From positions 48,119-112,118 of the forward strand of contig JACKFX010000003.1 in the NCBI GenBank assembly GCA_020632255.1: DNA of 64,000 nt, read 5' to 3'. Every line of letters starts with the position of its first letter. The stretch's first letter is position 1. Shown here piece by piece: positions 9,724 through 30,313 of this stretch. The stretch is from Pseudomonadales bacterium. GTDB taxonomy: Bacteria > Patescibacteriota > Microgenomatia > UBA1400 > PJMF01. The position numbers and the translations under genes are program-made. The notes below the pieces were generated by a model, which saw only the letters and a list, made by a program, of their open reading frames with translations, was not told the DNA's origin and ran no database searches.

Positions 9724-9734
9724 TATGAAAAGTG

Positions 9735-9933: not shown

Positions 9934-10002
9934 CGCGGGATAGTGTACGGTGCACGTGAGGCTCATAATCTCACAGGCTAGGTTCGACTCCTAGTCCCGC
10001 AA
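9934..10002 (+). tRNA. initiator-type tRNA-fMet (CAU anticodon, C1xA72 mismatch), unusually short (~69 nt)
   Basis: CGCGGGA-TA-GTGT..CAC-G-TGAGG-CTCATAA-TCTCA-CAGG-CTAGG-TTCGACT-CCTAG-TCCCGCA-A. It has the classic CTCATAA anticodon loop, a TTCGACT T-loop, and an unpaired C1/A72 as in bacterial initiator tRNA. The D-arm and variable loop are short. Confidence 0.7.
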
Positions 10003-10003
10003 A

Positions 10004-10150
10004 TTAAATAAAAAGGCTCCCTACTGGGAGTCTTTTTATTTAAGTGTGTGGTTGAATTTGAGTTGGTTGGCTTTGCCAACACGAATCTGACCGAGCCTCT
10101 GCTAGGGAATATCCGAAGCATGGGCGGAGGACCCAATCCCGCAAACTGAA
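10004..10150. repeat. ~145-bp repeat element, copy 1 (terminator hairpin + conserved ~110-nt segment)
   Basis: It aligns with 11537-11686, e.g. GGGAGT.TTTTTATTTAAG..TGTGGTT.A.TTTG.GTT..TTGG....CCAAC.CGAATCTGACCGA...GGCGGAG..., with compensatory changes in the TTGGC-ttt-GCCAA / TTGGT-gaa-GCCAA hairpin. Confidence 0.6.
10015..10040 (+). terminator. rho-independent terminator after tRNA-fMet
   Basis: GGCTCCC-tact-GGGAGTC followed by TTTTTATTT. Confidence 0.55.
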
Positions 10151-10235
10151 GAAGAGACCTAATTATGGTTCCTTTTTATTACATATATTTGATTATGATA
10201 AAATATCTTAGTTAGTAAAAAATAAATGGAAACTT

Positions 10236-10796
10236 ATGGCGGAAATACATATTAGAGCTGATCATGAGAGATTTGTTAGTCAGGATTTCATGCCCTCATC
10301 AAAAGAAGACTTATCTATTGTGTTTGAAGCTTTGTATAGAACATTTTCAAAATTATATCAACTCAAGTATGGGGTTCCTAAAGATGATATTGCTGGAATC
10401 CTGACTGATTTTACTTCATTAGGAGAAAGTGAATTATTACAAGTTAATACTTGGTGGACGCCAACAGAAGACTGGCCAGTCGATCGAATGTTAGAGGTTG
10501 GCTCTCAGCAAATTGCCTTAGCGATTTACCAATTACATTTTTCTGAAAATATGTTGGTAACGAGCACGATTGAACAAAGAGGTGTTGATCCTCAATTGAA
10601 TAAGACAATATTTGTGTATGGCTATAAGGATAAAGATGGCATTGTTCATGTGACTCAAGAAAAACCAATGATTGATGAATTTGGTAAGCAGATTATTGTG
10701 AATGGCACGCCTCAATATGACTCTGTTCAAGTTGAATATACTCAAGAAGATCTGAGGGTTTTAGCTGATGAGCTTGGTGAGTCAGATGCAGAGTAG
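10236..10796 (+). CDS. hypothetical protein (orphan, AT-rich)
   Basis: 186-aa ORF in the AT-rich islet. No recognisable domain. Confidence 0.45.
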   Translation: MAEIHIRADHERFVSQDFMPSSKEDLSIVFEALYRTFSKLYQLKYGVPKDDIAGILTDFTSLGESELLQVNTWWTPTEDWPVDRMLEVGSQQIALAIYQLHFSENMLVTSTIEQRGVDPQLNKTIFVYGYKDKDGIVHVTQEKPMIDEFGKQIIVNGTPQYDSVQVEYTQEDLRVLADELGESDAE

Positions 10797-10980
10797 GTTC
10801 TATTAATGAATTATATCAAAAAAACTACAACTTACTTGCACTTACATAGTCGTAAAGAACTTTGAAAAAAGTGTTGATTTTTATACTTCTTTACTTCAAT
10901 TAAGACTCCCAATGGATCTACTATTGGATTATTCTTAATTCTCCAAAATAAAAATCATCATTCTTTATAAAATAGGTTCG

Positions 10981-11003
10981 GATATCATCCCACATTCTCA
11001 ACA
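10981..11003. repeat. short direct repeat GATATCATCCCACATTC.CAACA (copy 1; copy 2 at 11513-11536)
   Basis: 22/24 nt identical. The flanking ~130 bp also show patchy similarity (10870-11005 vs 11400-11535). Confidence 0.5.
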
Positions 11004-11170
11004 ATAGTTCTCAGAAATAAACAAGTAATTCTTCTCATCAATCCAATTTTTAGGTTCTAATCCTTAATTTCATACAACTTGTTCCCTCAAGAAGATTTTA
11101 CGATATATGCTGGGATTAGAACTTATGATATACTTTGTACCACTTAATAACTATTTGTAAGAAAGATAAA

Positions 11171-11401
11171 ATGACAAAAGAAGTAGTAATTGATTGCGAA
11201 CAACCTATTGATGGGTTTGGAGGTCTAGTTATAATTTTATCTTATGTGCTTAACAGCATTCCAGTGAATGAATTATCTGCTGAACAACAAAAACAAATTG
11301 TATTTAATTTACCAGATGATTTAAGTGACTCAGAAATTAGGGCAATTATTGAACCGTGCATTGGTAATTTTGTTTTGCAAGTTGTCATTAATACTCTATA
11401 A
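11171..11401 (+). CDS. hypothetical small protein
   Basis: ORF MTKEVVIDCEQ.., inside the ORF-track 11135..11401. No domain recognised. Confidence 0.3.
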   Translation: MTKEVVIDCEQPIDGFGGLVIILSYVLNSIPVNELSAEQQKQIVFNLPDDLSDSEIRAIIEPCIGNFVLQVVINTL

Positions 11402-11536
11402 CACATATTATCCATCAGGTATATTTCTCCACTCCCAGTACTCCCTTTCACTGGGAATTTCCATCGCCAGCTCGGGGAAAACAAACTTCTCACAGCTAAT
11501 AATCCAGATTCTGATATCATCCCACATTCGCAACAC

Positions 11537-11686
11537 TTAAATAATAATACTGCCTTTTGGGAGTATTTTTATTTAAGCTTGTGGTTAACTTTGGGTTATT
11601 TGGTGAAGCCAACGCGAATCTGACCGAAGCGCAAGCGAGAGAATGTCAGGGGCGGAGACGAAAGACCCAGCTTACGCAAATTCATT
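11537..11686. repeat. ~145-bp repeat element, copy 2
   Basis: See copy 1. It starts with a degenerate hairpin TACTGCC-tttt-GGGAGTA-TTTTT. Confidence 0.6.
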
Positions 11687-12042
11687 CATTAATAGCTAAG
11701 ACTATTTTTATCCCAATTCCTTATCTAAAACAATTTTGATTTGATTATTTTTCTCTGAAAAAGAAAGACAACATATGAAAAAGCCCATGACGATATTCAA
11801 CAATTACTTAAATCTGGTTTATCAGACAAATTAGGTTTTGATTACTAAACAAAACTCTATACGCCAAATTCGATTAAGGTTGAGTAAGTAGGCCTAGAGA
11901 TTGACAAATGGATTATTTCTTGAAATAGTTATACCAAGAAGTTAAGAGAAACCACGACAATGGGACTCATGCTGTAAACCACAGAAATAGAGCACATTCA
12001 GAAAGGATCGACTCTTCATTAAAGAATCTGTTAAAAATTTCT

Positions 12043-13398
12043 ATGCCCAAATATTCGAAAAAAAAATCAAAAACCCCTTCAATAATTTCTGTTTTTCAAG
12101 CAACTGTGGTAGCCATAGTCGGCATTGGATTAACCGCTTTGCTGTTTTTGATAACTCAAAATCAAGATCTGCGACAACAAGCCTCAACTCAAAACAATAC
12201 CGACATAGTCGTATGTCCCCTCGATTCTTCTCTTACTGATTGCAACTATTTTGGTCCTCTTGGTATCCAACAAGCGTTGTCGGCTGTAGAACCTAACGGG
12301 CAAATTCTCATTAAAGCCGGACAATACGCGCTAGATTCAACTTCACAAACTGTCTTTAGAATTGACTCTAAAAACATTTCTATCAAGGGCGAAGGTCGAT
12401 ATCAAACCACTTTACTTCATTCGTCCAACACCGAGAATGATCCCGGTAGTGTGATTTTTGACATTGGTGGAAATTCTCATGTTGCTATTTCGGATCTTGG
12501 AATTGTACAAAAGGGAAGCTCCTTAGATCAAAGAGTCTTTGCGGTTAAAGCATTTGCATACGGTAGAGATCAACAAAATATTACTGTCGAAAGTTGCTAT
12601 TTCGAGGGTGGACTTGGCTTTATTCCGATCAGCATTGGTTCGTATGATCATAGTCTTACCAACAGTCTTGTGGTCGGTAACATCATGATCGCTCATTATG
12701 GAGGAATAAAAGTCTATAGTGGCAGTACTTCAGACACAAAGGCCGAAATAAAAAATAATATTCTCTTTGGTTCTATTGATCCAGAAAGAAGAATCGTTTC
12801 AATTATTTCCTCCGATCCCATTGATGGCGTGTCTGGAGTTCTAACTGCAGTTGTTCAAAATAATGCTGCTGGTGGTAATGGAGCTAATGCTTTTGATTGT
12901 TATAATGCCTCTGGAAACGAACACTCTCTTAAGTGCGAATTAACCAACAATATAGCTTTTCAAAACAGTCGCCTTGGGTTTTCAAGTAACACTGTAGTAA
13001 ATTTCGCATTGTTTGAATATAACCTAGGATTTGAAAATCGCGCTGGAAATTGGCCATCGGGTTGGCCAGGATTTCCACCCACAACTAATATCTCTGCGGA
13101 CGCCCTTTTTCAGACATCAAATACAACCAAAAGAGTAAAGGCAGAAGATTATATGCTACTCCCTAACTCTCCAGCTCGTAATGGGGGAAATCCACAAATT
13201 TTTGATCCAGATGGCTCCAGATCAGACATAGGACCTTTGGGCGGACCAAATGCTTGCAAATTATTGGCAACCTTGCCAGGTTGCACATTGCCCTCGACTC
13301 CAGAGTCTAAAACTGATCCTAAGGAAAATAAAGAAGCAGGCTCGCAAATACTGCGTCAGCAAAAAGAGGTGGATGTTCCCATCCGTGTGTCTAAGTAG
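12043..13398 (+). CDS. membrane-anchored right-handed parallel beta-helix repeat protein (pectate-lyase/NosD-like fold)
   Basis: N-terminal TM helix SIISVFQATVVAIVGIGLTALLFLI. This is followed by G/N/S/I-rich repeats typical of beta-helix proteins (NISIKGEG.., IGGNSHVAISDLGI.., GNIMIAHYGGIKV..). Confidence 0.5.
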   Translation: MPKYSKKKSKTPSIISVFQATVVAIVGIGLTALLFLITQNQDLRQQASTQNNTDIVVCPLDSSLTDCNYFGPLGIQQALSAVEPNGQILIKAGQYALDSTSQTVFRIDSKNISIKGEGRYQTTLLHSSNTENDPGSVIFDIGGNSHVAISDLGIVQKGSSLDQRVFAVKAFAYGRDQQNITVESCYFEGGLGFIPISIGSYDHSLTNSLVVGNIMIAHYGGIKVYSGSTSDTKAEIKNNILFGSIDPERRIVSIISSDPIDGVSGVLTAVVQNNAAGGNGANAFDCYNASGNEHSLKCELTNNIAFQNSRLGFSSNTVVNFALFEYNLGFENRAGNWPSGWPGFPPTTNISADALFQTSNTTKRVKAEDYMLLPNSPARNGGNPQIFDPDGSRSDIGPLGGPNACKLLATLPGCTLPSTPESKTDPKENKEAGSQILRQQKEVDVPIRVSK

Positions 13399-13433: not shown

Positions 13434-14219
13434 TTAGGCATCAAACCAGGCTACGCACACTGCATTCGCATTGTGGAACGGTTGATCATACTTTGCTTTT
13501 GAAACATCCTTGTAACGAACCTGCCTCCATGCATTTAGATGCGTGGTTCTTTGTAGAAAATATGTTCGTGTAAATCCAAAAAAACCAGATTTCAACAATA
13601 CATCCAAATTAGGATTATATCCCAGTGGAAACGTCACTAATAATCTACCTCCAGGATTGAGTAAACCTTTTAGAGTATGTAGTGCTTTTAAAGTTTTACA
13701 TCGATCTGGCGCGTCTTCATCATAACCAACATGTTCGAGTGTGGAAATTCCACAGATGTAGTCGAACTTAGTTCTTGGACTGTACTCAATTACATCTTCA
13801 TTAATAACATGGCCTGCTTTTTCATATTTGTCTAACACAGTGTAATTTAGAAATCCACACTTCTTCGCACCTTCTTGGAGGTTACTTAGCGGAAAGTAGT
13901 GAGACAACACATCGCCCACCTCAAGCACAGAAAATGAAAACTCTTTGCTCTCAATAGTATCTCTCCAAGGCTTTGAAGCCGTCTGCAAAAGTTTTTTTCT
14001 AAGTTGTATATGTAAAAATCTCCATGCGATAGGAACTTCTACTGCTCGCTCATTCTTCCAGGTAGCGTTATAGCGATGACAGAAATATGAATACTTCTTA
14101 CCTAAAAATACAAACCTTTTATAACGAAAGGTTTTTCGAGCAAACTCAAAACTGTGAATGAGTCGTAGAAATGGTGATTGAATATCAAATGGGAGTAAAA
14201 ACATTACATGAATTATCAC
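13434..14219 (-). CDS. class I SAM-dependent methyltransferase-like protein
   Basis: LEVGDVLSHYF.. and ..ISTLEHVGYDEDAPDRCKTLKALHTLKGLLNPGGRLLVTFP resemble MTase motif I/II and post-II regions. Confidence 0.45.
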   Translation of the reverse strand: MIIHVMFLLPFDIQSPFLRLIHSFEFARKTFRYKRFVFLGKKYSYFCHRYNATWKNERAVEVPIAWRFLHIQLRKKLLQTASKPWRDTIESKEFSFSVLEVGDVLSHYFPLSNLQEGAKKCGFLNYTVLDKYEKAGHVINEDVIEYSPRTKFDYICGISTLEHVGYDEDAPDRCKTLKALHTLKGLLNPGGRLLVTFPLGYNPNLDVLLKSGFFGFTRTYFLQRTTHLNAWRQVRYKDVSKAKYDQPFHNANAVCVAWFDA

Positions 14220-14370
14220 CTACGTCTAATCAGGAGTAAACTAGCACATTATAATTTTGCTCGAGCGAGACACTTGCTAGTTTCAGGTAAATGAACTCAA
14301 TCAATGCTGGAAGGGAACACCTTACTTGAAATGGACCCTTCACTAGATGACTGCAATTGGACAAGGTGTA

Positions 14371-17300
14371 TTACAATCCGTTTAAAAATCCAAATACTTC
14401 ACGCAAATTGGTTATGACAAGATCAAATGCATTATCCGTTGCTTTTGGGGTAATCGTAACGGTATCGATAGATCTCGACTCATTGTTAGCGCTATCTCTT
14501 GAAATTGCTCGTAAATGATATACCTTAGAAGGGGTTAAGCCCGAAACAATAACTAGATGATTGTAGGTGAGTGTTCGATCTTCTTGAGTGGTTTGAGAAT
14601 AACTCACTCCCGTGCCATCACCAAATTCAACCTGCGAAGTCGCTGGCTCATCTGTTGTCCATGTCACAACAAGTTGCGAATTAGACTCTTGGGCGGTTGT
14701 ATTTACCTGAGGAACATTAGTTCCCTCAACAGTTAGATCGGTAATTCTTGGTGGTCGTGTATCTGTGGCCGTAGTAAATCGTAAGTTGTCAGATACTGCC
14801 TCATTACCAATTCTGTCTCTTCCTTTTACAATTAAAATGTACGATGTTTCGGGCAGTAAGCCAGGCACTATCATTTCATGTTCTCCATCAAGCAGTTCTA
14901 TATCGACTGCATCTCGAGCATATTCCGGGTTTGACTCAGGGTAGAAGGTAATAATTGATGAAATCGGCGTGTTCGATTCCCATGTCACTCGTATTGACGA
15001 CTGAGCTGTGTTGGCAACTTGCTGTACTCTCACATTACTCACTTCAGGTCGTGGTAGGGTTTCAAAATCGAGGATTGTGCCAGCATATGTGTCTGCTTCA
15101 GAATCTTCTGTGTCAATTTTAAAGTAATATTTTGTGCCATCATCCAAATCCGAGAGTTGAATCGCGTACGTCGTTTCTAAAGAAGACGTTGCAATTGTTT
15201 CAATGCCACCAAATGAGGTTGACTTGCCGTAACTAATGTTGGCTGCAGATGCACCAACTGTAGTAAATTCAATCAAAGCCGAATCTATGCCAATGTTTTT
15301 AACTACAACATCTTTCACCAACGGTGCAGGATTTGTCTGGAAGCTTTTTTCTTCTGACTCTCCAGTGTTACCATCCTCGTCGGTCCATTTTGTTTTATAG
15401 TAGTATGTCTTTCCGGGTTCTAAATTAATGAGATTAATTGTGTGTTCAGAAACTTGAGTAGAATTTGAAGTTTCTTCATCCTCGTAATTGCCTGAGCTCG
15501 TTCCAATAGAAACTTTACTATCACTAGTTCTAGCGGTAGTCCACGTAATGGTTGCACGTTTGGTTGTAATTGATGAAGCTGCGGGTCCAGAGGTCAGCTC
15601 TGCTGGCTCAGTGTATGCGCCTTTGGGAATAAGTGAGACCGCATTACTGTATGAGGGACTTGCGATCGATTCGTCAGATGAGTCAGTCGCGGCAACGCGC
15701 CAATAGTACAAGCTGGACGTACTGAGAGTGTCTAAAAAGGCCAAGCCGCTTGTGCTATCTATGTCTGTCCATGAATTGGCATCATTCGATCTTTGAATGG
15801 TATACGTAAGATCTCCTGTGCCTCTATAATCTGGGCTAGACCAAGCTAATGATGCTCTCCACAACGAGGCAGTCTTGACCGATGCGTCTGAAACAACGAG
15901 TGATTGGGGGGCATCCGGTAACGACGAATCTAGAGTGAAGTTTCCATAAATATAATTACTCTGTGAATAATTTTGGTTGTCATCAACTGCCACTACATAT
16001 ATCGTATTTGAACCCTTCCGCACATTAGACAATGACGTTGTAGAAATACTTGTTTGGGTTGTGGGCACATATGTTGCCGAATTTGAAGTAATAGTTTGAT
16101 ACAAGGCTGGTGGAGCAGTATTAATCATATAGTAGTAGTTTGTAATGGTTCTGCCATCTGATGGGGTCGCATCGGGCCAATTAAATGAATACATATTTTC
16201 CGTATTGGTGGAAGGTGTTATTGTGACCACAGCCGAGCTGTCGAAAGCCGGTGCTTCTCCTCCATATTCTAGGGGGGCAGTTGTAAACGCGGAAGCATTA
16301 CCCGCCCTATCAACGGTTCTAAAATAGAGTACATTACTCCCAACAATAATGTCGTCTCCAACCACGCTTGCATTCAGTGAAAAGGGCTGAGCCGAATCTG
16401 TGGCAATATACTCATATCCAGTGGTGACGTCGGTTATAATTCCTCTCCACGTGTCTGTTGAATTAACAGCGTATTGATAGCCCAAAATACCCGAACCTGC
16501 ATCGCTTGCTGCTTGCGGACCACTGATAGGCCAATAAAAATTCATATCAGCAATACTAGATACACTCCCCGAAGAAGCGGAGATTGTTTTGACATTATTA
16601 GGAGATGTACCATCAAAATAAAATGAAAAAGTACTACTAGCTGTATCATTTTGCCCAGCATTATTCGCAGTATCTATTGGTCGAATTTTGAAGTAATAGG
16701 GTTCACTGCTAGAGGAAAGCCATGTGTTTCCTCTCAACGCCGTATTGGAAAAATCAACCGAGTTATCATCGATAATAAATTGGCAGTTAGATCCTGTGGT
16801 AGAAACTGGAGAGGCCCCCAGTAATCCCTTTTGAGTTGAAGGATCACCGTCAGGATCAGTGCCTAAATACAGGCAGTAGCCCTTGAGTCCAGAAGTATCG
16901 CCATTTGTAATCCAAGAAAAGTAGATATCCGAACGACTAAACCAGACCACAGATGAATCGTCTGTGTGCGTTGTGGGATGGGCCGCATAAGCCTTCATGT
17001 TTGTGGTCACCACATTTGTAGGGGAAGTCGTATCAATTGCAAATGCTGGGTCTCCGGATGCATCAACCCAGGCTGATTCAGCGTCGTTTTCATCAATTGT
17101 TTTTACTCTCCAATAATAGTCACCTTCTGCCAAAGTCTGCCCTGCAGAACCAACTGCATATGTTCCAGATCCAGCGTTCTGACCAACGGTAAATGAAGCA
17201 GATCCCTGCAGCATTAGCGATCCAGTAAAGTCAATGACCACTGAAGAAAAATCGGCAGTATCAGCAACTTGAATTTGATACTTTACCTGATTTTCTGAAT

Positions 17301-19416
17301 CTGGATCTGACTGCGAAAACAAAAAAGTGGGAGTTGTATCATTGCTACGTTGACTATCAATAAAAACTGATGTTCCGGGGATAATAGGATCACTTGGATT
17401 GGCATTGAGTACAACGGAAAAGTCGGTTTCAGACTCAGCGTTCTCTCCATACACAATCCATTGAGAGCAATAATCTGACGAATTACACACCCGTGATTGC
17501 CAATGGTAGTTTGTTAAGTCTTCTAATCCTGACACAGTGACCGAGCCCACGACGGGGGTGTCGACATAACTCGTTTCAGGGCTGGTATGAGTAGCAGTAT
17601 CGGTGAATGCATCGCCCACTACTCTAACTTCGAACTCTGCGTATAGTTGATCGGAAGAATCTGGGTCGCTCATCAAAACCTCAAGAACTATTGAGTCTTC
17701 ATGGACCTGGCCACCAACTTCAATTTCTGAATCTTCAGAATCCAATTGGGTTGATGATCCGGGCTTAGAGGGAAGACCACTTAAGAAGAATGTGCCATCT
17801 TCTCCCACATATAATGGGTTGGAGTGCGTTCCAGCAGCAACCGAAAATGATCCCAAAAATTCATTGATGTGGCTAATAATTGAAACTCTTCCGCCTCCTC
17901 CAGAACCGCCAACTCCGTTTGAATTGCCCCCTTTCGCTGAAATTGATCCCGATCCAGATAACACTCCGTGGGCCAATAACCACAAGCTACCTCCAGCTCC
18001 TGCTCCATTTTCACTCGTATTTTCTCCACCGTCGGCCGCAAGCGTCCCATTAATAGTGAGTTGATCGTAGGCAGTAATTTTAATTGCGCCACCACCCCGA
18101 CCAGTAGTTATTGTAGAACTTTGACCAAAGGCACCGCCGCTACCCAAAGTAATTGGACTTATTTCAGACCCATAAGTTATACCGCCATACACTGTAGAAC
18201 CACTTGATCCCTGAGTGTTTCCTCCTTTGCCCCCGTGACCTCCACCACCTCCAGTATATCGAGTTCGAACTCCTCCAGCTCCTGGTCCTTTTGCAATTTC
18301 ATATCCTAATCCGGTACTGGTAAGAGTACTTCCAGAATCAATGGTTAGAGTATCGACAGTAATATCCCAACCATAGCCGCTTTCATCTACTTGATCTGTG
18401 TTTTTTGAGGCTAGTTGCAAGGTACTATTGTTTGTAACTAGAATACTCGTAATGGTGGGAAATGTATCTCTAAAATACGTGTAAGAATCTGGATACCACT
18501 TTTGTGAGTTTCGAATGTTGAGTGAGTTATCATCGGTATCAAGCACTATGGCGGTACCATTTGTGCCAGAATACAGAGCATTTGAAGTATTCACACCACC
18601 TGTTGCCACCAAAGTCAATGTATCCGAAAATGAAGCCGTTTCTAAGACTATCCTCCCTCCTGCTCCAGCACCAGAACCACCCGTTGCTCCACCTCCCACT
18701 GACGAAATCGTTCCCGATCCACCAACAGCAGCATCCCCAACAATCCAGATACTACCTCCCGAACCAGCACCGCCCCATTGTGTGCCCGCTCCTCCATTTG
18801 TAGAAATCAATCCATCAACTACCACATCTCCTGCAGAAACTATTTTAATCGCTCCTCCTCCTGAACCTCCGGCAGGAGTGCCTTGACCAATGCCGCCTCC
18901 ACTTCCCAAATCTATGGGGGCAATCAAAGAACCATATATAATCCCTCCCAATGATATGTTGCCGTTTCCCCCTGTGCCTCCATATCCACCTCCTGCGCCA
19001 CTATATTGCCCCGTCCTGTTTCCACCAACTCCCGGACCATAAGTAAATGGGTAACCCTGAGCATCTGCCGCTAGTATGCCCCCAGATTCCACAGTGAGCG
19101 CTCCCACTTGCAGTGTCACGCCAAAATCATCGTCGTAATTAGTGTCTCCAGTTTCGTAGCTCTCCAATGTTACCGTAGTCCCTGAAGTAATATGTAATTC
19201 AACACTTGAACAATCAAAAATGCCGGAATTTGCTAATGAAGCAGATATAGATCGATTGGTATTAATCAAAATCGTGCCATTTACAGTAGAATCACCATCA
19301 CCGAATCCACCATCAACATAAGGACACGACACCGCACTTACTTGAGAAACAAAAAAAAGACGCAAGAACGAAATCGCGCTTAGACTCAAGAAAAGTCCTA
19401 CTTTCAGCTTATTCAT
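14371..19416 (-). CDS. giant secreted surface protein (1681 aa): signal peptide, two Gly-rich ~270-aa repeat modules, then Ig/FN3-like beta-rich domains
   Basis: N-terminal MNKLKVGLFLSLSAISFLRLFFVSQVSAVS. There are internally duplicated blocks (..GGGYGGTGGNGNISLGGIIYGS..GGGAIKIVSAGD.. versus ..GGGGGHGGKGGNTQG..GGITYGS..GGGAIKITAYDQ..). The long S/T-rich C-terminal two thirds has repeated YYWRV / YYFK beta-sandwich-like units. Confidence 0.75.
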   Translation of the reverse strand: MNKLKVGLFLSLSAISFLRLFFVSQVSAVSCPYVDGGFGDGDSTVNGTILINTNRSISASLANSGIFDCSSVELHITSGTTVTLESYETGDTNYDDDFGVTLQVGALTVESGGILAADAQGYPFTYGPGVGGNRTGQYSGAGGGYGGTGGNGNISLGGIIYGSLIAPIDLGSGGGIGQGTPAGGSGGGAIKIVSAGDVVVDGLISTNGGAGTQWGGAGSGGSIWIVGDAAVGGSGTISSVGGGATGGSGAGAGGRIVLETASFSDTLTLVATGGVNTSNALYSGTNGTAIVLDTDDNSLNIRNSQKWYPDSYTYFRDTFPTITSILVTNNSTLQLASKNTDQVDESGYGWDITVDTLTIDSGSTLTSTGLGYEIAKGPGAGGVRTRYTGGGGGHGGKGGNTQGSSGSTVYGGITYGSEISPITLGSGGAFGQSSTITTGRGGGAIKITAYDQLTINGTLAADGGENTSENGAGAGGSLWLLAHGVLSGSGSISAKGGNSNGVGGSGGGGRVSIISHINEFLGSFSVAAGTHSNPLYVGEDGTFFLSGLPSKPGSSTQLDSEDSEIEVGGQVHEDSIVLEVLMSDPDSSDQLYAEFEVRVVGDAFTDTATHTSPETSYVDTPVVGSVTVSGLEDLTNYHWQSRVCNSSDYCSQWIVYGENAESETDFSVVLNANPSDPIIPGTSVFIDSQRSNDTTPTFLFSQSDPDSENQVKYQIQVADTADFSSVVIDFTGSLMLQGSASFTVGQNAGSGTYAVGSAGQTLAEGDYYWRVKTIDENDAESAWVDASGDPAFAIDTTSPTNVVTTNMKAYAAHPTTHTDDSSVVWFSRSDIYFSWITNGDTSGLKGYCLYLGTDPDGDPSTQKGLLGASPVSTTGSNCQFIIDDNSVDFSNTALRGNTWLSSSSEPYYFKIRPIDTANNAGQNDTASSTFSFYFDGTSPNNVKTISASSGSVSSIADMNFYWPISGPQAASDAGSGILGYQYAVNSTDTWRGIITDVTTGYEYIATDSAQPFSLNASVVGDDIIVGSNVLYFRTVDRAGNASAFTTAPLEYGGEAPAFDSSAVVTITPSTNTENMYSFNWPDATPSDGRTITNYYYMINTAPPALYQTITSNSATYVPTTQTSISTTSLSNVRKGSNTIYVVAVDDNQNYSQSNYIYGNFTLDSSLPDAPQSLVVSDASVKTASLWRASLAWSSPDYRGTGDLTYTIQRSNDANSWTDIDSTSGLAFLDTLSTSSLYYWRVAATDSSDESIASPSYSNAVSLIPKGAYTEPAELTSGPAASSITTKRATITWTTARTSDSKVSIGTSSGNYEDEETSNSTQVSEHTINLINLEPGKTYYYKTKWTDEDGNTGESEEKSFQTNPAPLVKDVVVKNIGIDSALIEFTTVGASAANISYGKSTSFGGIETIATSSLETTYAIQLSDLDDGTKYYFKIDTEDSEADTYAGTILDFETLPRPEVSNVRVQQVANTAQSSIRVTWESNTPISSIITFYPESNPEYARDAVDIELLDGEHEMIVPGLLPETSYILIVKGRDRIGNEAVSDNLRFTTATDTRPPRITDLTVEGTNVPQVNTTAQESNSQLVVTWTTDEPATSQVEFGDGTGVSYSQTTQEDRTLTYNHLVIVSGLTPSKVYHLRAISRDSANNESRSIDTVTITPKATDNAFDLVITNLREVFGFLNGL

Positions 19417-22438: not shown

Positions 22439-22720
22439 ATGAAGGATTATACCTTCAAATTACCTGTAAATACGAGTGTCTCTGATTTGACAGTGGTATT
22501 TACAAATGATTACTATAATCCAGACACCGGTCAAAACCGTACACTCGAGTTTGATTACCTTAAGATTGGCAACAAAGTGTACCTGTCTGAAGTAGTTGCA
22601 ACGTACTCCAATGGAAGTTGTGGAGGGAGGCAATCGTATTTTCGCTGTTATTTTGAAAAAACACTATTGTGCACACATATGCAACCTAGAAGAGAATTTC
22701 CAGCCACTTTTCTTGGTTAG
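22439..22720 (+). CDS. hypothetical small protein (possible domain fragment)
   Basis: 93-aa ORF with no signal peptide. It overlaps the ftsB 3' end convergently by 35 bp. Weak call. Confidence 0.2.
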   Translation: MKDYTFKLPVNTSVSDLTVVFTNDYYNPDTGQNRTLEFDYLKIGNKVYLSEVVATYSNGSCGGRQSYFRCYFEKTLLCTHMQPRREFPATFLG

Positions 22721-23192: not shown

Positions 23193-24059
23193 ATGCAAAA
23201 GACACTAACTGATGCACATGCGCTTTTTACTCAGCATCTTAAAGATTCTGGGAAGGCTCATGCTACTGTAATCGCATATAGTAAAGATATTGAGCAATTG
23301 GTTGAGTTTGTTGGAAAAAAGGGCAAAGGAACAATTGATGAGGTTTCTGACACTGATATCAACGAGTTCAAGGAATTACTCAAGAAACAACGCTACACTG
23401 GAAAATCTATTTCAAGAAAAATTAACTCAATTAAAGCCTTCTTTAGATTTTGTATTGGTCAAGGAATGATCAATGATAACCCCGCTGAAGTAATTACACA
23501 TCCAAAATATGAATTGACACCTCCTCGAGTATTATCTCGCATTGAGTATCGCGCGCTTCGTGATGCTTGCCGCGGCGACGCTCGTATGTACGCTGTTGTT
23601 GAGCTCTTGCTCCAAACTGGTATGCGTATTTCTGAGTTAGCAGCTCTCCAAATCGGAGATGTTGATTTTGATCGTAAGGTTTTAATCATTAAAGCTCAAA
23701 ATTCTCGAGAAGCACGCAAAGTTCCTTTGAATGAAGCTGCAAAAGAGGCCATCATGGACTATCTCCAAGTTCGCCCTCGTGCACGAGAAAAGACTGTTTT
23801 CCTTACAAAAACATGTCGACCATTCTTAGTTCGCAACATTCGTACTGCTATTGATCGTTATTTCCGCTTAGCTGGTATCAAAGATGCTAAAGTCAATGAC
23901 CTCCGTCACACCTTCATCGTCGAACAGCTCAAGGCTGGAACTCCACTTGTGTATGTTTCACAATTGGTTGGTCACAAGAGAATTACCACTACTGAGAAAT
24001 ACTTGAAGCTTATCGAAGCTCCAGAAATGACTCCTAACGTTCGAATTGAAGAGTTATAA
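23193..24059 (+). CDS. tyrosine site-specific recombinase (XerC/XerD/phage-integrase family)
   Basis: ..LLLQTGMRISELAALQIGDVD.. (catalytic R), ..LRHTFIVEQLKAGTPLVYVSQLVGHKRITTTEKYLKL (H-x-x-R ... Y catalytic residues). Confidence 0.75.
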   Translation: MQKTLTDAHALFTQHLKDSGKAHATVIAYSKDIEQLVEFVGKKGKGTIDEVSDTDINEFKELLKKQRYTGKSISRKINSIKAFFRFCIGQGMINDNPAEVITHPKYELTPPRVLSRIEYRALRDACRGDARMYAVVELLLQTGMRISELAALQIGDVDFDRKVLIIKAQNSREARKVPLNEAAKEAIMDYLQVRPRAREKTVFLTKTCRPFLVRNIRTAIDRYFRLAGIKDAKVNDLRHTFIVEQLKAGTPLVYVSQLVGHKRITTTEKYLKLIEAPEMTPNVRIEEL

Positions 24060-24087
24060 GATTTATTGTTCAGAATTGAAACAAAAG

Positions 24088-24113
24088 ATGCCGTGCTCTG
24101 CGCGGCATTTTTG
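24088..24113 (+). terminator. rho-independent terminator after recombinase gene
   Basis: ATGCCG-tgctctgcg-CGGCAT followed by TTTTT. Confidence 0.5.
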
Positions 24114-24306
24114 ATATTAAACTGAGCCAACCTCAACAAAATTGATACATTGTTAATTTTGATGTGTCATTTCTCAGACACTGTGTTTCACAGTCATTGT
24201 GATATAGTGGTATTGTGTATTTTTGTCAGTGAAAAATTAATATTTAACTGTTTTTTAATTTGAAAGTCATCAAGAATTAAGATATATAAGATATATAAAT
24301 AAGTTT

Positions 24307-27300
24307 ATGAATGAAATTTTAAATTATTTAAATATTGGTGGAGCTCATAAAGAAAAAGAAAAGTCAGAGCTTCATGCCGAAGAAGCAGAGGCTTATGAGC
24401 GCTACAAGAAATTACGATCTCAATTTGGTGTTTCTGAAAATCAACCATATAACGCATTGGTAAAAAAACGAACATTGGATATTAGTTCATATATAAAATT
24501 TCATATACAAGAAACAGCTGCGAGTACACCAGCTGAAACAGACGAAGCATCTTTTGAGGATGAAATTGCAAGTGAAGAAGGATTAATTTCCCATTTACAC
24601 TCAGCTTTAGGAGAAGGATATAAAGCTTCTAGACAAGAACATGTCCAGAAATTGACAGAACTCGGTGTAGCATATGCAGATAAAGTGTTGCGTGTATATG
24701 AAAGAGGCTTAGTTTTTGCTCGAAATGGTGCTTATAAACTTGAATTTGATCAGGAAACAATTGATTCTGAGTTAGCAAAAACTATTTCTTATGATCTCGA
24801 TCAAATGTATGCTTTTTTGGAATCAGAACAATCAATTAACTTTTTAGGTAAGTGTGAAAATTTTCCACTCGCATACGATCGTGCAAGAGAATTGTTTGGG
24901 AAGAATGCTAATAAGCTTGATGCTCAAGACAAAAAAACACCTGCTTTGCTTAATCTTTTGGCTGGTGTACCCCAAGAAACATATCAAAAAAATCTCTCAG
25001 TTATTAAACAATACAGTTTTTTGTACCCTCCAGTTGCTGAAGGTACTTTTATAGAATTTTCTACCCCCTACATTGAGATATTAATGAATGGTATTACGGA
25101 AAGTGAGCAGATGACCTTTAATGCGGTCATGAAGATTGGCAAAATATTGGGTGACAAAAAACTAGTGGGTCACCCAATAGTTTCTAAAGGTCCAAAAGAA
25201 ATACTTGCATCTGAAGAAGATATTCTTAATGAACTTGAAACACTAGAAGTGTTGATATACTCCCTCAAAGACAACCCAGATTTGCTTGCAGCAGTTATGG
25301 AAGATCCGTCAACAGTTTATAGTAACTTAAAATCATTGAGAGGAGTTGCATTTTGGCAGGATTTTGTTGCAATTTTAGTAAAGTTAAGCGCTGATGGGTG
25401 GGGAGTAAATGTTGAGGATGCGTATGATTTGCTGAAAGCCGATAGGTCTGGAAAAAATCGAGTAGATTCTATATGCGGTAATATTCGAAAATCTAATTGG
25501 GCCAACAGCAGACTTTTTGATGCCGAGCAACGAGAGTACTGGCTTTTTTTGCAAGATATACGTTCTCAGGAGCGAGCTGAACAAAACATAATTTCAATTG
25601 ATGAAGTTGCTATGCTGCAATCATTCATACGTCCTGACACGTCAAACCTATTTTTCAACATTACTGAGATTATTATCCGAAATACTGAGGATCCATTTCA
25701 GAGAAAAGATGTATTTAATTTGTTGTGTGAGCAGAAGGATGGCTTAGGATTTGGAATACATGTAGATGAAGTATCTGCGTATCTAGATAGTATCGATGAA
25801 AAAACTGCAGATGAAGTTGATGCCCGTTTTATTAAAGTATGGCAACACTGTCAAAATAAAGGGATTCTTAATGTTGTGTTTTTCCCTGAATTTTTGTTTT
25901 CAGTTATGAACCGAGTTGATGAGCTCTTTGATGCCAATAACGAGCCCCTATACTTATTGTACTTTGAGTTCCTACAGTACGTTAAATCATTACCTTTAGA
26001 CTCAACGAGTCTTTTTAAAACAATACAAGATACTGTTCTCTCGAAAGAGGAACCATTCACTGAGCTTTCCAAGCTTGTAACTGATAATGTTGACACACAA
26101 TTTCTTGAAAATTTACAGTTATATGTTCGCGTCATCGAAATTTTTAAAGAAGAAAACATTAAAGACTGGAAAAATTATCATATCCAGTTTTTTGACTATT
26201 TGTTGCAAGTAGATGACAAGGAGGAAGTCCTTGCAGATATCAAGACAGTTTTAGCTAATTCAGACATTCCAGATTTTGCAAAAATATATCGTGTTTTCGA
26301 ACGTGTCTATTTACAAGAGGGTGTATCTAGCTATGGATCTCGATTTATTACCCAAGCCCCAGATGGTTTATCTGATGTTGTAGTTAGTCCCGAGCTTGAA
26401 AAGGCGAGTCAGAGAAAGAAAGCGTTTTTATTGTATACAGATTTGTTGCGGATTCATGTTGATTCAAATAATGACTCACTGCGGGCGTATCTTCGACTCT
26501 TTTCAGAAGTTCAGCAACTAATTGATACTTTAGAAACTGATGGAGTCGTATCTTTAGGCGAGAAAGATAAACTTCAATTGTTTAGAGTTTTTTCAAAGTA
26601 TGATGGGCTTTTTGGTCAGACAAAATTGCCTCAATTTGAGTTTGATTTGGGTACAATTAATCCTGAAGAAATAGACGATATTCTCATTCTTTCATTACAA
26701 AAATTATATGCACAGTTTGCTGTGCCCGATGGTATGCGTCTAAGTGATAGAGTTACTGAAATATTTGCACGTACTTTAGGGGTTAGTTCAATTGAAGAGC
26801 TATTAAATAGAATGGACACTGTAACAAAAGAATCTGACACAAAAAATCGTGCTCGAGTTGAGCAGGGCAGCTTTTCTTTTGAAACAGGTGATTTGTGCAC
26901 CTCTGTTAATGTTGATGAGTGTGCCGAAATTCTAGAAGATGGATTGACAGCCCCAGAATTTTTAAAGGAAAAAATTGCACGAAATCACTTGCTATTTAGT
27001 TTAGAGCTTCTTTCAATTGGGAATATTGAGGATAGAGACCAAAAGCAAATAAGCGCTGATCTTCAGCAAGAATTGCAACTTGGCAAAAATGATGTTGCGC
27101 TTGTTTTTACTGAAATAAATCAAGTGGTTTCTGATGAATCTGCTACAAAATCAAGAGCTAAGCATGAAGTCTTTGATATTGAACAAGCTGTTGGTATTGG
27201 CTCAGTGTTTGGTCGAAAGGGTGTTAGAACAGGCCTTTCATCCTCTGAATTATCAGCAATCCTTGTCACTCCATCTATGAGAGAGAATGGTCAAAAAATG

Positions 27301-28104
27301 TATCAGCTTTTTTATAACATTGCCATTCGTGATAGATTTGTTCCTGTGATTGATATGGCAAGTGGAGAATGTATCTTAACTGAAGAAATATTTGATGCTC
27401 TTAGAGTAAAAAATGAGTTGATTTTAGAAGTTGTATCTGGGAATCCGACGCCAGAAGAACTTATTGCAGCATTTAAAGAGTCATTTTTCTTGAAAAAGCT
27501 GTATGATGCCCCCGCCTATGTGCTTGAAGGCATTTCGCTTGAACAACATACAATTACTGTACTAAGACAGTTCATGAGATATTTCTTTGAATCTGATTTA
27601 GGAGTGCTTTCAAAAGACGAGTTTTTGGTTCTTTTTGCGTTACATGATATAGGTAAACCATTAGCAAAAGTTATTGCAGGAACATCAACAGCTCAACACA
27701 TTTTTACACAAGCTTTGGTTACACCATTGTTAATGAGGATGGGATTTGATCAACTAACTGTTGATACTATTATTTCTATTGCAAGCCAGGACATTTTAGG
27801 GTTATATATGCAGGGTAAGATAGAGTTGCAGGATGCCGCTAAAAGAATTGTTGATTTATCGTTTGAACTTGGGTTAGATATCAACAAGTTGCTCAAAACA
27901 CTCAAAGTATATTATTTGTGTGATGCAAGTTCTTATACGCAAGATGCTTTAGATGTCTATGGAAAGAAGGGCTTCTTAAACCATCTTTTTAAGTTTGATC
28001 GAGAAAAAGATGCAGAGACTGGTACTCTAGCACTAGAGTCTCAGCAAGAAGTTAAGCTTTTTGAGCTTGAGAACGAAATTAGAAACGTCTTACAGTCAAA
28101 GTAA
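24307..28104 (+). CDS. orphan 1265-aa protein, mostly alpha-helical/acidic, with a C-terminal HD-phosphohydrolase-like motif
   Basis: Uninterrupted 3.8-kb ORF in an AT-rich stretch. Near the C-terminus, ..EQHTITVLRQFMRYFFESDLGVLSKDEFLVLFALHDIGKPLAK.. has H..(28 aa)..HD(I)GK, the core HD-domain signature. No P-loop was seen. Confidence 0.65.
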   Translation: MNEILNYLNIGGAHKEKEKSELHAEEAEAYERYKKLRSQFGVSENQPYNALVKKRTLDISSYIKFHIQETAASTPAETDEASFEDEIASEEGLISHLHSALGEGYKASRQEHVQKLTELGVAYADKVLRVYERGLVFARNGAYKLEFDQETIDSELAKTISYDLDQMYAFLESEQSINFLGKCENFPLAYDRARELFGKNANKLDAQDKKTPALLNLLAGVPQETYQKNLSVIKQYSFLYPPVAEGTFIEFSTPYIEILMNGITESEQMTFNAVMKIGKILGDKKLVGHPIVSKGPKEILASEEDILNELETLEVLIYSLKDNPDLLAAVMEDPSTVYSNLKSLRGVAFWQDFVAILVKLSADGWGVNVEDAYDLLKADRSGKNRVDSICGNIRKSNWANSRLFDAEQREYWLFLQDIRSQERAEQNIISIDEVAMLQSFIRPDTSNLFFNITEIIIRNTEDPFQRKDVFNLLCEQKDGLGFGIHVDEVSAYLDSIDEKTADEVDARFIKVWQHCQNKGILNVVFFPEFLFSVMNRVDELFDANNEPLYLLYFEFLQYVKSLPLDSTSLFKTIQDTVLSKEEPFTELSKLVTDNVDTQFLENLQLYVRVIEIFKEENIKDWKNYHIQFFDYLLQVDDKEEVLADIKTVLANSDIPDFAKIYRVFERVYLQEGVSSYGSRFITQAPDGLSDVVVSPELEKASQRKKAFLLYTDLLRIHVDSNNDSLRAYLRLFSEVQQLIDTLETDGVVSLGEKDKLQLFRVFSKYDGLFGQTKLPQFEFDLGTINPEEIDDILILSLQKLYAQFAVPDGMRLSDRVTEIFARTLGVSSIEELLNRMDTVTKESDTKNRARVEQGSFSFETGDLCTSVNVDECAEILEDGLTAPEFLKEKIARNHLLFSLELLSIGNIEDRDQKQISADLQQELQLGKNDVALVFTEINQVVSDESATKSRAKHEVFDIEQAVGIGSVFGRKGVRTGLSSSELSAILVTPSMRENGQKMYQLFYNIAIRDRFVPVIDMASGECILTEEIFDALRVKNELILEVVSGNPTPEELIAAFKESFFLKKLYDAPAYVLEGISLEQHTITVLRQFMRYFFESDLGVLSKDEFLVLFALHDIGKPLAKVIAGTSTAQHIFTQALVTPLLMRMGFDQLTVDTIISIASQDILGLYMQGKIELQDAAKRIVDLSFELGLDINKLLKTLKVYYLCDASSYTQDALDVYGKKGFLNHLFKFDREKDAETGTLALESQQEVKLFELENEIRNVLQSK

Positions 28105-28522
28105 ACAATACTTTTGTCATTATTTTTATGAGTGAAAACCCAAAAAATACAATAAAGAAGTTTGTTCCATAATAGGTAGGCCCTAGAATTAGTATTAGTG
28201 ATATTGATGTAGTACCTGCAAGTCTTGAAGATGCACTACACAAGTTAAAGATTGAGAAAAATATTACGTTTAGTAATGTTGATGAAGTAATAGATTACTT
28301 AAAAAGAAGACAAAATATATTTCCTAATTTGTCTATAATCAAATTATCAGTTATTTGCGCTACTCAGTTAATAATAGTTGTTAGATCTTATATATCTAAT
28401 GTGATTTTTTTGGTACTGTGATAGAATACAAGCCGTATGAGTAAACAAAGAATAGTAAACCAAAAAAACTGGTGGACTTCCTAAACTAAGGGAGTGGTTT
28501 GTTGGCGCTAATTTTCAACTTG

Positions 28523-28545
28523 TACTCCCGCTTGGGAGTATTTTT
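28523..28545 (+). terminator. hairpin TACTCCC-gctt-GGGAGTA + TTTTT
   Basis: Read directly. The same stem sequence recurs at 10015-10040 and 11551-11575. Confidence 0.5.
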
Positions 28546-28592
28546 CTTTTTGATAGGTTTAATTCCCATAGTAAAAATTTTGGGAGAAAACC

Positions 28593-29327
28593 ATGCAAAA
28601 ACATAAATGTATAGGAATTATTGGTGGAGTTGGTCCTCAGGCTACTGGGTATTTGTATCGTACCTTGATTGATTTAGCTCAAGAGCAGTATGGAGCTCCC
28701 GAAAATCACTTATTTCCTCGGGTATTAATTGTATCTGAACCTGTATTGGACTTTATTTCTTCAAAGGAAAACGTGCCTGTTGCAAGAAAACAAATTTTTT
28801 CAGCCACTGATCAGTTATTGGATGGAGGAGCTACTTGTATTGCAATTGTAAGTAATACCGTTCATTTGTTGGCGTCTGAAGTAGAAGCAGTCTGTGAAAA
28901 AGCTGGAGTCCAGTTTGTTTCAATGCTCAACGTAGTTGCAGAAACATGTGCTACTAGAGGGTTCAGCACAGTTGGTTTATTGGGTAGCCCAGTAACACTG
29001 CAGTCAGACTTGTATGATTTAGCAGTCGCGAAACAAGGTGTTCAACTTTTCAAGCCAAGTGCCAAGGCATATGCGCAATTAGGATGTATAATAAAAGAAG
29101 TGATTGCCGGAAATGTTTCTGCAAAAAACAAAAAAACATTTTTATGTTTGTTGTCGGAACTTTCGAAAGACACTGATGCGGTCATTCTTGGCTGTACAGA
29201 GTTGCCAGTGCTAAATGCCCAACTTAAAACCAAATACATGGTAGTAGATACCAGTAAAGTGCTCGCAATAGCCCTTCTGGAGTATTACTACATCACAACA
29301 GAAACTAATCACGAAGGAAACATATGA
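28593..29327 (+). CDS. aspartate/glutamate racemase family protein (likely aspartate racemase)
   Basis: IGIIGGVGPQAT.., ..CIAIVSNTVHL.. and ..ILGCTELPV.. are the three signature blocks of Asp/Glu racemases. Confidence 0.7.
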   Translation: MQKHKCIGIIGGVGPQATGYLYRTLIDLAQEQYGAPENHLFPRVLIVSEPVLDFISSKENVPVARKQIFSATDQLLDGGATCIAIVSNTVHLLASEVEAVCEKAGVQFVSMLNVVAETCATRGFSTVGLLGSPVTLQSDLYDLAVAKQGVQLFKPSAKAYAQLGCIIKEVIAGNVSAKNKKTFLCLLSELSKDTDAVILGCTELPVLNAQLKTKYMVVDTSKVLAIALLEYYYITTETNHEGNI

Positions 29328-30313
29328 AAAAAAGAGTATTAGCAGGAATGCGACCAACTGGTCGACTTCACTTAGGAAATTACTTGGGTGCTGCCAAGGG
29401 AATGTTGGCGCTTCAGGATGATCCAGATTATGAAACACTATTTACGGTAGTGGATATTCATGCCATTACGACTCCATATGATGCAACTAGTCTCCAGCAG
29501 AGTGTGCGTGATGTTTATTTGGATTATTTAGCAGTTGGTCTCGATCCAGAAAAGAGTGCGATTACAGTGCAGTCTGATTTAGCTGATTTGATTACCCAGC
29601 TGTCGTTTTACTTTTCTTCGGTGATGACGGTGGCTCGGATGCGTCATTTACCAACTTTTAAAGATAAGGTAAAACAACATCCAGACTATGTAACTATGGC
29701 ATTGCTGAACTATCCGTTGTTGATGGCTGCAGATATTTTGATTTACAAAGCTGGCATGGTGCCAGTGGGTATCGACCAAGAACCTCATTTAGAAATTGCT
29801 CGTGAAGTTGCCCGCAAGATGAATGAGCAGTACGGCATGGACTTTCCAGAGCCTGTTCGGTTCGCCACAAAAGGCGAGTATGTTCCGTCAATTCTAGGCG
29901 AGGGCAAGATGAGCAAGTCGGTTGAAGGATCTGCCATTGAATTGGGTGACGATCTTGATACAATCGTTGCTCGTCTTAAGAAAGCCCCAACTGATAGTGG
30001 CAAGGGAGAAACTGTGCCAACTGAGGGTGGTGTGGCCAACTTGCTTCAGTTTGTTGAACTTTTCCAAGGTGAAGCAAAACGCAGAGAGTACGAGGCTGCA
30101 TATGTAGGTGAGGGTATTCGCTACGGAGATCTTAAAAAGGAGCTGGCTGAAGCTATTTTTGCTGAACTACAGCCAATCCAAGAGCGTCGCCGTAAACTTG
30201 AAAATAATCCTGAGTATGTAGATCGCATGATGCGTGAGGGTGCCGAGCGCTCACGCGCAATTGCGGAAGCAACAGTGGCTGAAGTCCGTGAAAAAATGGG
30301 GCTTCGAAAGTAG
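29324..30313 (+). CDS. trpS: tryptophan--tRNA ligase
   Basis: ..AGMRPTGRLHLGNYLGA.. (HIGH-like) and KMSKSVEGS (KMSKS). It overlaps the racemase gene by 4 bp (ATGA). Confidence 0.9.
   Translation: MKKRVLAGMRPTGRLHLGNYLGAAKGMLALQDDPDYETLFTVVDIHAITTPYDATSLQQSVRDVYLDYLAVGLDPEKSAITVQSDLADLITQLSFYFSSVMTVARMRHLPTFKDKVKQHPDYVTMALLNYPLLMAADILIYKAGMVPVGIDQEPHLEIAREVARKMNEQYGMDFPEPVRFATKGEYVPSILGEGKMSKSVEGSAIELGDDLDTIVARLKKAPTDSGKGETVPTEGGVANLLQFVELFQGEAKRREYEAAYVGEGIRYGDLKKELAEAIFAELQPIQERRRKLENNPEYVDRMMREGAERSRAIAEATVAEVREKMGLRK

Follow-up and report, generated by a model that had tools for sequence, protein, structure and literature searches.

A candidate HD-domain protein family of the candidate phyla radiation, encoded on an apparent insertion next to a core Xer recombinase gene

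Among the HD proteins of HDIG type, YqeK is encoded beside nadD in Firmicutes. Enzymes of the KptA/Tpt1 type remove the 2'-phosphate of RNA in an NAD+-dependent reaction. Partner phosphoesterases process the products, and a fusion of KptA with Nudix has been interpreted in this way too (PMC9503650). ADP-ribosyltransferase (ART) domains are also commonly carried by the large 'polyvalent' phage proteins that are packaged in the virion (PMC9503650). Here, we analyzed a 64,000-nucleotide stretch of DNA (positions 48,119 to 112,118 of contig JACKFX010000003.1, forward strand, GenBank assembly GCA_020632255.1; hereafter the window) from a bacterium belonging to the candidate phyla radiation (CPR), and within it a gene for a 1265-residue protein, the big gene, that follows a tyrosine recombinase gene. 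We found that the big gene lies on a segment of low guanine-cytosine (GC) content that appears to have been inserted into a block of housekeeping genes. The gene is the entry point to a huge protein family, mostly from CPR bacteria, that lacks a curated database description. The features on which the argument turns are these:

23193 to 24059, plus strand: xer open reading frame (ORF), 288 residues, a tyrosine recombinase
24060 to 28463, no strand assigned: low-GC insertion of 4404 bp, delimited by blastn break points and GC
24307 to 28104, plus strand: big ORF, 1265 residues, the single ORF in the AT-rich stretch

We consider it reasonably probable that xer, the low-GC insertion and an attenuator at the right end of the region are three unrelated things lying side by side. 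The gene identities, the insertion and the architecture of the family are well supported. The original prediction had observed the region largely correctly, but the link that it proposed between the recombinase and the big gene is wrong.

The big gene had been described as an orphan. When its 1265-residue product was compared exhaustively by phmmer with 1.84 billion cluster representatives, 1007 matched at E≤1e-3, 579 at E≤1e-10 and 71 at E≤1e-30, which removes that label. Other searches returned far less: three word-indexed homolog searches (with the single sequence, the full-length alignment A1 and the core alignment A2) gave the self-match or nothing, GTDB genomes scanned with the single protein yielded no match, and sequence and profile searches of the PDB with the protein, A1, A2, A4 and A5 gave chance matches only. 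An identical partial protein is recorded at NCBI under the name Candidatus Woesebacteria bacterium, and two Logan contigs carry the exact protein, again between these neighbors. The closest full-length relative (P0002, 1268 residues) is 39% identical and sits in a different neighborhood, with metabolic neighbors and no recombinase. Across GTDB genomes we found 55 family loci, in Patescibacteria, Elusimicrobiota, Peribacteria, Omnitrophota, Myxococcota and metagenome-assembled genomes (MAGs) labelled Gammaproteobacteria. The full core is present in 9 of these 55; in the others, the C-terminal module stands alone (about 220 residues) or lies inside proteins of 2000-5700 residues. None of 56 family loci (the 55 from GTDB plus L058) shares synteny with the window. 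By these matches the family appears to be very large, centered on Patescibacteria/CPR and uncurated, in that no curated model describes it. Giant ORFs of 3300-5700 residues with an internal HD module occur at six loci in Elusimicrobiota, Auribacterota and Omnitrophota (L015, L016, L017, L035, L043 and L053). In the giant homologs of L014, L015 and L017, Pfam gave methyltransferase matches only, with methyltransferase domains in L017.

As predicted, the big protein is the product of a single ORF, acidic (206 Asp/Glu against 135 Lys/Arg) and largely alpha-helical, the modelled part (residues 590-1265) being mostly helical except for one alpha/beta domain. It has no hydrophobic segment of transmembrane type, and we infer a cytoplasmic location. 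Module coverage and architectures were counted in the best 150 homologs, and divide the protein as follows:

24307 to 26073, plus strand: residues 1-589, variable N-terminal region, in about 10 of the 150 homologs; helical in the original prediction
26074 to 26871, plus strand: residues 590-855, helical domain, in about 130 of the 150
26872 to 27411, plus strand: residues 856-1035, alpha/beta domain with a DarT/Tpt1-like predicted fold, in about 130 of the 150
27412 to 28104, plus strand: residues 1036-1265 and the stop codon, C-terminal HD domain, in about 90 of the 150

Residues 1-589 had no sequence match in Pfam, NCBIfam, PHROG, PADLOC or the PDB. The helical, alpha/beta and HD domains occur together in 67 of the 150 homologs; another 61 combine the helical and alpha/beta domains with a different C-terminus of about 300 residues, and 14 consist of the C-terminal domain alone. 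The alternative C-terminus matches NTP_transf_2 (5e-5 in P0103), which points to a Pol-beta-type nucleotidyltransferase in about half of the members. With 15 homologs as input, AlphaFold2 (AF2) gave a model of residues 590-1265 (pLDDT 79, pTM 0.82) in which residues 590-855 form helices, and the window copy keeps 11 of the 15 conserved positions of this helical domain. A single-sequence AF2 model of residues 801-1265 (pLDDT 38) was discarded.

The C-terminal domain carries the clearest signature. In the AF2 model its predicted fold is an HD fold, and the H..HDIGK core that had been noticed near the C-terminus is present as H1081...H1113-D1114-I-G-K. Alignments of 40 and of 29 sequences share the invariant residues H1081, H1113-D1114, G1116, K1117, Q1130-H1131, G1165, D1206, Y1210 and T1211, with D1162 also invariant in the 40-sequence alignment. 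The metal-ligand set H...HD...H...D...D is thus complete, and of the 25 HD positions with at least 85% conservation the window copy retains 23. Among 29 homologs, the HDIG model TIGR00277 matches 15 (best 1.4e-5), PF01966 matches 14 (best 7e-4) and cas3_HD matches 13. The PF01966 matches all lie under the Pfam gathering score, the cas3_HD matches are sub-threshold, and no curated HD model reaches threshold for the family. On this sequence evidence we regard the domain as a genuine though divergent HDIG-type HD domain.

The alpha/beta domain in front of it takes, in the predicted model, an ART fold like that of DarT and Tpt1. Foldseek gave weak matches to DarT, KptA and CteC and, in BFVD, to a phage 'putative RNA 2'-phosphotransferase', with nothing at E≤1e-3 in either the PDB or BFVD. 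The only part that hhalign aligned with E. coli KptA is the beta1-alpha1 NAD-binding motif (LLKGV...G.VA.E in the family, LYHGT...G.IAGE in KptA). Opposite the KptA His, the family has Lys and the window protein Thr865. Because the fold is seen in the predicted model only and the sequence profiles are blank, the domain does not count as an established member of the ART superfamily. Within the family it has a set of near-invariant residues of its own (GDLLKG, SDxTPFDTD, DRGQF, YELF, RHYGIRTG and NGxYIPV). Of 27 such positions the window protein keeps 12, the lowest count among 141 members (median 26; P0002 keeps 16), and the family-invariant acidic and polar residues are mostly lost. No NAD-binding or catalytic signature (H-Y-E, R-S-E or the Tpt1 variant) was found in the window protein, and in this copy the domain is probably no longer catalytic.

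Clues to function come from other members of the family. At six Moraniibacteriota loci (L022, L024, L027, L032, L036 and L038), a stand-alone HD homolog of about 223 residues is the last gene of a co-directional NAD cluster; the cluster genes, encoding a NadD-like cytidylyltransferase-fold protein, NAPRTase, NAD kinase and NAD synthase, are found about 5 kb upstream of the match at each locus. Genes for CCA-adding enzymes lie near family members in three loci (L015, L026 and L052). The HD module is also found inside proteins of 720-1606 residues on 20 IMG/VR viral contigs (L139-L158). In one of these, the protein of L139 (L139:6234-10733), residues 998-1314 match phage proteins annotated as ADP-ribosyltransferases; a PDB search with this protein found nothing. 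Taken together, these clues suggest NAD- or ADP-ribose-linked processing of phosphate ends. We propose, tentatively and as a possibility still open to considerable doubt, that the big protein would be a metal-dependent phosphohydrolase, trimming a phosphate or phosphodiester either on a molecule derived from NAD+ or ADP-ribose or on an RNA (tRNA) end, and that its decayed ART-like domain and its helical domains would bind the substrate. If active, the family would open a new branch of NAD/ADP-ribose-dependent modification of nucleic acids or proteins.

Two further observations concern the same loci. The C-terminus of the L139 protein reads LYRG...FSTSL...GETEYIV, by eye only an R-S-E-like ART pattern. 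In a Myxococcaceae MAG, L052:8051-15056 holds three closely spaced HD-family paralogs (9530-12019 and 12019-13182, adjacent on the plus strand, and 13446-15056 on the minus strand), which a PolyA_pol/CCA-adding-enzyme gene (6750-8051, minus strand) adjoins.

Several results weigh against this picture of the protein. The window protein has no HD profile match at E≤1 in permissive searches of Pfam and NCBIfam; half of its homologs match HD or HDIG profiles, below the thresholds of the curated models. For the alpha/beta domain, the ART fold assignment comes from the predicted model only, its profile matches nothing in Pfam or the PDB, and its hhalign comparison with E. coli KptA is non-significant (probability 0.8%). 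The six NAD loci are all from one phylum and may therefore count as a single ancestral arrangement, and the family as a whole is known from sequences and predicted models alone.

The reading that fares best among the alternatives, though we think it unlikely, is that of a single-gene anti-phage defense or toxin effector on a small defense islet, the HD domain being a nuclease or dNTPase (Cas3-HD, SAMHD1-like). A low-GC, strain-specific insertion would suit such a gene, as would the sub-threshold cas3_HD matches in 13 of the 29 homologs, an ART fold, which is typical of conflict systems, and the occurrence of the HD module in large multidomain phage proteins and in the 2000-5700-residue proteins of Elusimicrobiota and others. 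The surroundings speak differently, however: the neighbors are housekeeping genes, there is no recognizable sensor, ATPase or partner gene, and none is conserved as a partner, the stand-alone homologs sit in NAD-biosynthesis operons and not in defense islands, and the closest homolog has metabolic neighbors. Moreover, the presumed toxin module, the ART-like domain, is decayed in the window copy. No model of PADLOC-DB 2.0 matched xer, the big ORF, the racemase, TrpRS or DivIC, the ABC transporter having generic ATPase matches only, and the sole PHROGs match was to the integrase. With no relevant PADLOC match, the suggestion of a novel defense or effector locus finds no positive support here.

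A wider reading of the family strikes us as quite unlikely. The family might comprise undescribed two-step NAD+-dependent modifying enzymes of CPR bacteria and phages. In the first step, a macromolecule (an RNA end, DNA or a protein) would be ADP-ribosylated by the ART-fold domain; in the second, the adduct would be processed by the fused HD phosphodiesterase or nucleotidyltransferase, following a SidE- or KptA-like logic. The choice of targets in the episymbionts' host cell would fall to the long variable N-termini. The window copy would then be a pseudo-ART variant that retains the hydrolase step only, for example as a reversing or immunity enzyme.

How the big gene came to lie next to xer can be read from its surroundings. 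The genes named in the comparison below are:

28593 to 29327, plus strand: Asp/Glu racemase (Pfam Asp_Glu_race, 3.6e-22)
29324 to 30313, plus strand: tryptophanyl-tRNA synthetase, trpS (Pfam tRNA-synt_1b, 5.8e-57)
Upstream neighbors, minus strand: MacB-type ABC transporter genes and divIC/ftsB (Pfam)
Downstream neighbors, in order: Asp/Glu racemase, trpS, tRNA-binding protein and ftsH (Pfam)

The segment 24060-28463 has a GC content of 0.347, compared with 0.419 across the rest of the window, and the window's lowest-GC 4.4-kb stretch starts at 24054, with 0.1% of such stretches equally low; the AT-richness beside the recombinase is therefore real and sharply bounded. The long non-coding flanks of the big ORF are, as had been noticed, AT-rich, with a GC content of 0.28 and 0.27. 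We compared the region by blastn with the closest relatives (L059 and L060), in which Xer is 95% identical and the flanks are 70-78% identical in DNA. Homology ends exactly at the xer stop codon (24059) and returns at 28464, 129 bp before the racemase start. Where the window has 4404 bases, the nearest relative has 619 unrelated ones, which identifies the segment as an insertion. These 619 bp (L060:10868-11486) hold a minus-strand ORF of 124 residues, without a Pfam match, and two terminator-like hairpins, and a filler so distinct suggests that the xer-racemase spacer turns over quickly. In L061 (Xer 93% identical), xer is followed by trpS within 167 bp and the racemase is missing; elsewhere the contents of the xer-trpS spacer also vary, with the racemase in L059 and L060 and an ORF of 540 residues in L080. 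The differences among L059, L060 and L061 mark the spacer as a variable spot. No relative of the big gene was found within 10 kb in any of 80 related Xer loci. On this evidence the big gene appears to be a lineage-specific insertion, present in this species alone among those sampled, and the simplest history would be an xer-trpS arrangement that gained first the racemase and then the 4.4-kb segment. The contig of the closest homolog has a GC content of 0.357, similar to that of the insertion, which fits a donor among the lower-GC CPR bacteria.

One result tempers this history. The big gene lies at the low end of the window's genes in base composition (GC 0.358, 0.305 at second and 0.261 at third codon positions), its low second-position GC being a compositional effect of the protein sequence. 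Its synonymous codon usage, however, looks native, with a log-likelihood of -1.016 per codon that places it among the best-fitting genes of the window. Of the two tests suggested for foreign origin, base composition thus deviates and synonymous codon usage is normal, which would mean that the acquisition may be old, or that relatives have lost the gene. We regard the second of these, in which the big gene is ancestral at the locus and owes its low GC to amino-acid composition only, as improbable, even though codon usage that fits the genome and the second-position effect are what it would predict. About 36 contigs (Xer 61-95% identical) have trpS, tRNA_bind or ftsH after xer on the same strand, mostly within 58-240 bp and without the big gene, so that loss would have to have occurred many times independently. 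The non-coding flanks also belong to the non-homologous low-GC block, and the nearest homolog is just 39% identical and lies elsewhere in its genome.

The recombinase itself bears on the idea that the insertion is a mobile island. The Xer protein matches PF00589 (Phage_integrase, 8.7e-31) and has an N-terminal SAM-like domain (PF02899, Phage_int_SAM_1, 5.3e-11). Its top NCBIfam models are XerD, XerA and XerC (E about 1e-47), and its 159-165 bits fall short of every XerC, XerD and XerA equivalog cut-off (220-335 bits). A metagenome scan with the 288-residue protein gave 210 relatives, of which 80 were kept (L059-L138). Among these, the relatives with the conserved block have a full-length Xer 72-95% identical to ours, several on contigs of 0.75-1.4 Mb. 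The order divIC (minus strand), xer (plus strand), trpS, tRNA_bind, ftsH is kept by about 36 of the 80. The catalytic residues R145, R238, H261 and Y270 are conserved in 78-80 of the 80 relatives, and Asn235 stands at the His position of HxxR (His-II) in all 80; no Lys could be assigned with confidence as the catalytic one. Strong conservation within a fixed housekeeping block argues against an island integrase; the recombinase appears to be a housekeeping core Xer-type enzyme of a Woesebacteria-like (CPR) lineage, in its ancestral position. Its description as an integrase-family recombinase with its own terminator holds, the latter being a stem-loop with a T-run:

24088 to 24112, plus strand: terminator-like hairpin after xer, ATGCCGTGC-TCT-GCGCGGCAT followed by TTTT; a 9-bp stem-loop read from the sequence

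This hairpin is absent from the list of a simple terminator scan, and relatives, too, have G+C-rich hairpins with T-runs immediately 3' of xer.

The inserted segment contains no mobility gene, there is no second integrase within the 64-kb window, and the only tRNAs are about 14 kb away. The big ORF is flanked by an inverted repeat of 15/16 nucleotides (24280-24295 and 28382-28397; AGATATATAAGATATA and TAGATCTTATATATCT). Its sequence is AT-rich and low in complexity, and it is probably a chance match, which by a rough estimate would arise about 1 time in 10. A dif site beside xer was considered as a target for integration and dropped, as relatives share no conserved motif. We hold it very improbable that the segment is a genomic island which the adjacent tyrosine recombinase integrated, be it as the island's integrase or as the host Xer at a dif site beside xer in the manner of an integrative mobile element exploiting Xer (IMEX). 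The insertion does begin right after the xer stop codon, in a variable spacer, and has this repeat around its ORF. Relatives without the insertion, however, keep Xer at 73-95% identity and in fixed synteny, the borders at 24060 and 28463 show no direct repeats beyond chance 15-mers, the relatives share no dif-like motif downstream of xer, phmmer detected no Xer-like recombinase when the predicted ORFs of 56 family loci (L003-L058, with flanks of up to 10 kb on each side) were searched, and the repeat itself is of the kind that chance supplies. In summary, the candidate island of the original prediction survives as a compositionally distinct, lineage-specific insertion, without the att-like repeats and without an integrase role for the recombinase, which is a core gene present without the insertion in all 80 relatives. 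The fallback that it offered, a chromosomal Xer beside a lineage-specific effector, comes close to the evidence, with the word 'effector' unproven. More generally, a tyrosine recombinase beside an odd gene is no evidence for an island integrase; here, synteny across relatives decides.

The right end of the region belongs to a different element, which we read as a probable Trp-sensing leader-peptide attenuator (28437-28546) of the racemase-trpS operon:

28437 to 28484, plus strand: putative leader peptide MSKQRIVNQKNWWTS followed by a stop codon, 15 codons with tandem Trp codons, read from the sequence
28476 to 28546, plus strand: attenuator RNA, with hairpin 1:2 at 28476-28495 and terminator 3:4 at 28522-28541 plus a T-run

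The hairpin TACTCCC-GCTT-GGGAGTA and its T-run occupy 28522-28546, and the terminator scan lists both hairpins. The successive segments are ACTTCC, GGGAGT, ACTCCC and GGGAGT, so region 2 (GGGAGT) may pair with region 3 (ACTCCC); 1:2 and 3:4 pairing would terminate transcription, and 2:3 pairing would allow read-through. The sister strain L060 shares the 129 bp that precede the racemase; in the stem an A-T pair is replaced there by G-C, a compensatory change, and the coding sequence for WWTS is identical. Short Trp-containing ORFs occupy the same place relative to the hairpins in other relatives with a terminator in front of trpS (two WW pairs in L064, WW in L080, one W each in L090, L097 and L089); 6-7 related contigs share both the Trp codons and the hairpins. 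Both hairpins reappear in an RNAalifold analysis of six relatives, in which 6 of 14 pairs show compensatory changes. With its leader ORF and hairpins conserved in this way, the right-end hairpin belongs to the probable racemase-trpS attenuator and not to the big gene. The leader has no family match in Rfam. A T-box was considered as the trpS leader and dropped: Rfam gave no match, and a short ORF with two successive Trp codons accounts better for TGGTGG.

The hairpin had been called a recurring one. It is real, and its pattern occurs once in the window; the bare heptamer TACTCCC is found 10 times, compared with 3.7 expected. Elsewhere, a stretch of 1.25 kb without a long ORF (10797-12042, GC 0.324) has TACTCCC at 11439 and its complement at 11559, 120 nucleotides apart; the stretch is located immediately downstream of a divergent pair of tRNA-Met genes (9734-9808, minus strand; 9934-10002, plus strand). 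Other features of the window include an ORF of 93 residues (22439-22720) inside the 606-bp gap between the ABC transporter genes and divIC, which matches the xylan-binding module CBM60 in Pfam (3.2e-9) and may be a gene fragment. There are also two more very large ORFs, one of 1681 residues (14371-19416, minus strand), which has faint matches of fn3/PhoD_N type only, and one of 1311 residues (42569-46504, plus strand); neither showed a relationship to the family of the big gene.

Set against known systems, the family resembles HDIG-type HD proteins (PDB 2pq7, YhaM, YqeK, the HD domain of CCA-adding enzymes and Cas3-HD) in its H...HD(IGK)...H...D order and in the matches of half of its homologs to TIGR00277 or PF01966. 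It differs from them in an additional invariant C-terminal motif, CDA[SG]SYTxDAGG (with D1206, Y1210 and T1211), in the fusion of the HD domain to large non-HD regions, and in scoring below the threshold of every curated model. As with YqeK, stand-alone homologs are found in an NAD gene cluster. The mechanism proposed for the big protein would resemble that of the HD phosphoesterase of bacterial CCA-adding enzymes or of the processing partners of KptA/Tpt1 (2H, Nudix). To DarT and Tpt1/KptA themselves, the alpha/beta domain of the family shows no significant sequence similarity. It has Lys, or Thr in the window copy, where ARTs have His or Arg, and in place of the canonical ART motifs it has its own SDxTPFDTD and RHYGIRTG, mostly lost in the window copy. 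The combination of an ART fold and an HD-fold phosphoesterase in one large protein recalls the SidE effectors of Legionella, which join a mono-ADP-ribosyltransferase (mART) domain to an HD-like phosphodiesterase. The likeness is one of logic only: unlike SidE, the family has a different domain order, no sequence similarity, no deubiquitinase (DUB) domain and no sign that it is secreted or targets ubiquitin.

The two elements beside the insertion have closer counterparts. The recombinase shares with XerC, XerD and XerA the two-domain architecture, the R/R/H/Y residues and the status of a core gene with fixed synteny, and differs from them in scoring below the equivalog cut-offs and in the Asn that replaces the His of HxxR in all 80 relatives. 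E. coli TrpL ends in WWRTS before its stop codon. The leader described here, a short ORF ending in WWTS, likewise resembles trpL and the pheM leader of pheST in its 1:2/2:3/3:4 scheme, in its U-run terminator and in preceding a gene whose product uses tryptophan. It matches no Rfam model and, unlike E. coli trpL, stands before an aminoacyl-tRNA synthetase operon, in a CPR bacterium. A putative Trp-codon attenuator in front of trpS suggests that ribosome-mediated attenuation may operate in ultra-small CPR bacteria.

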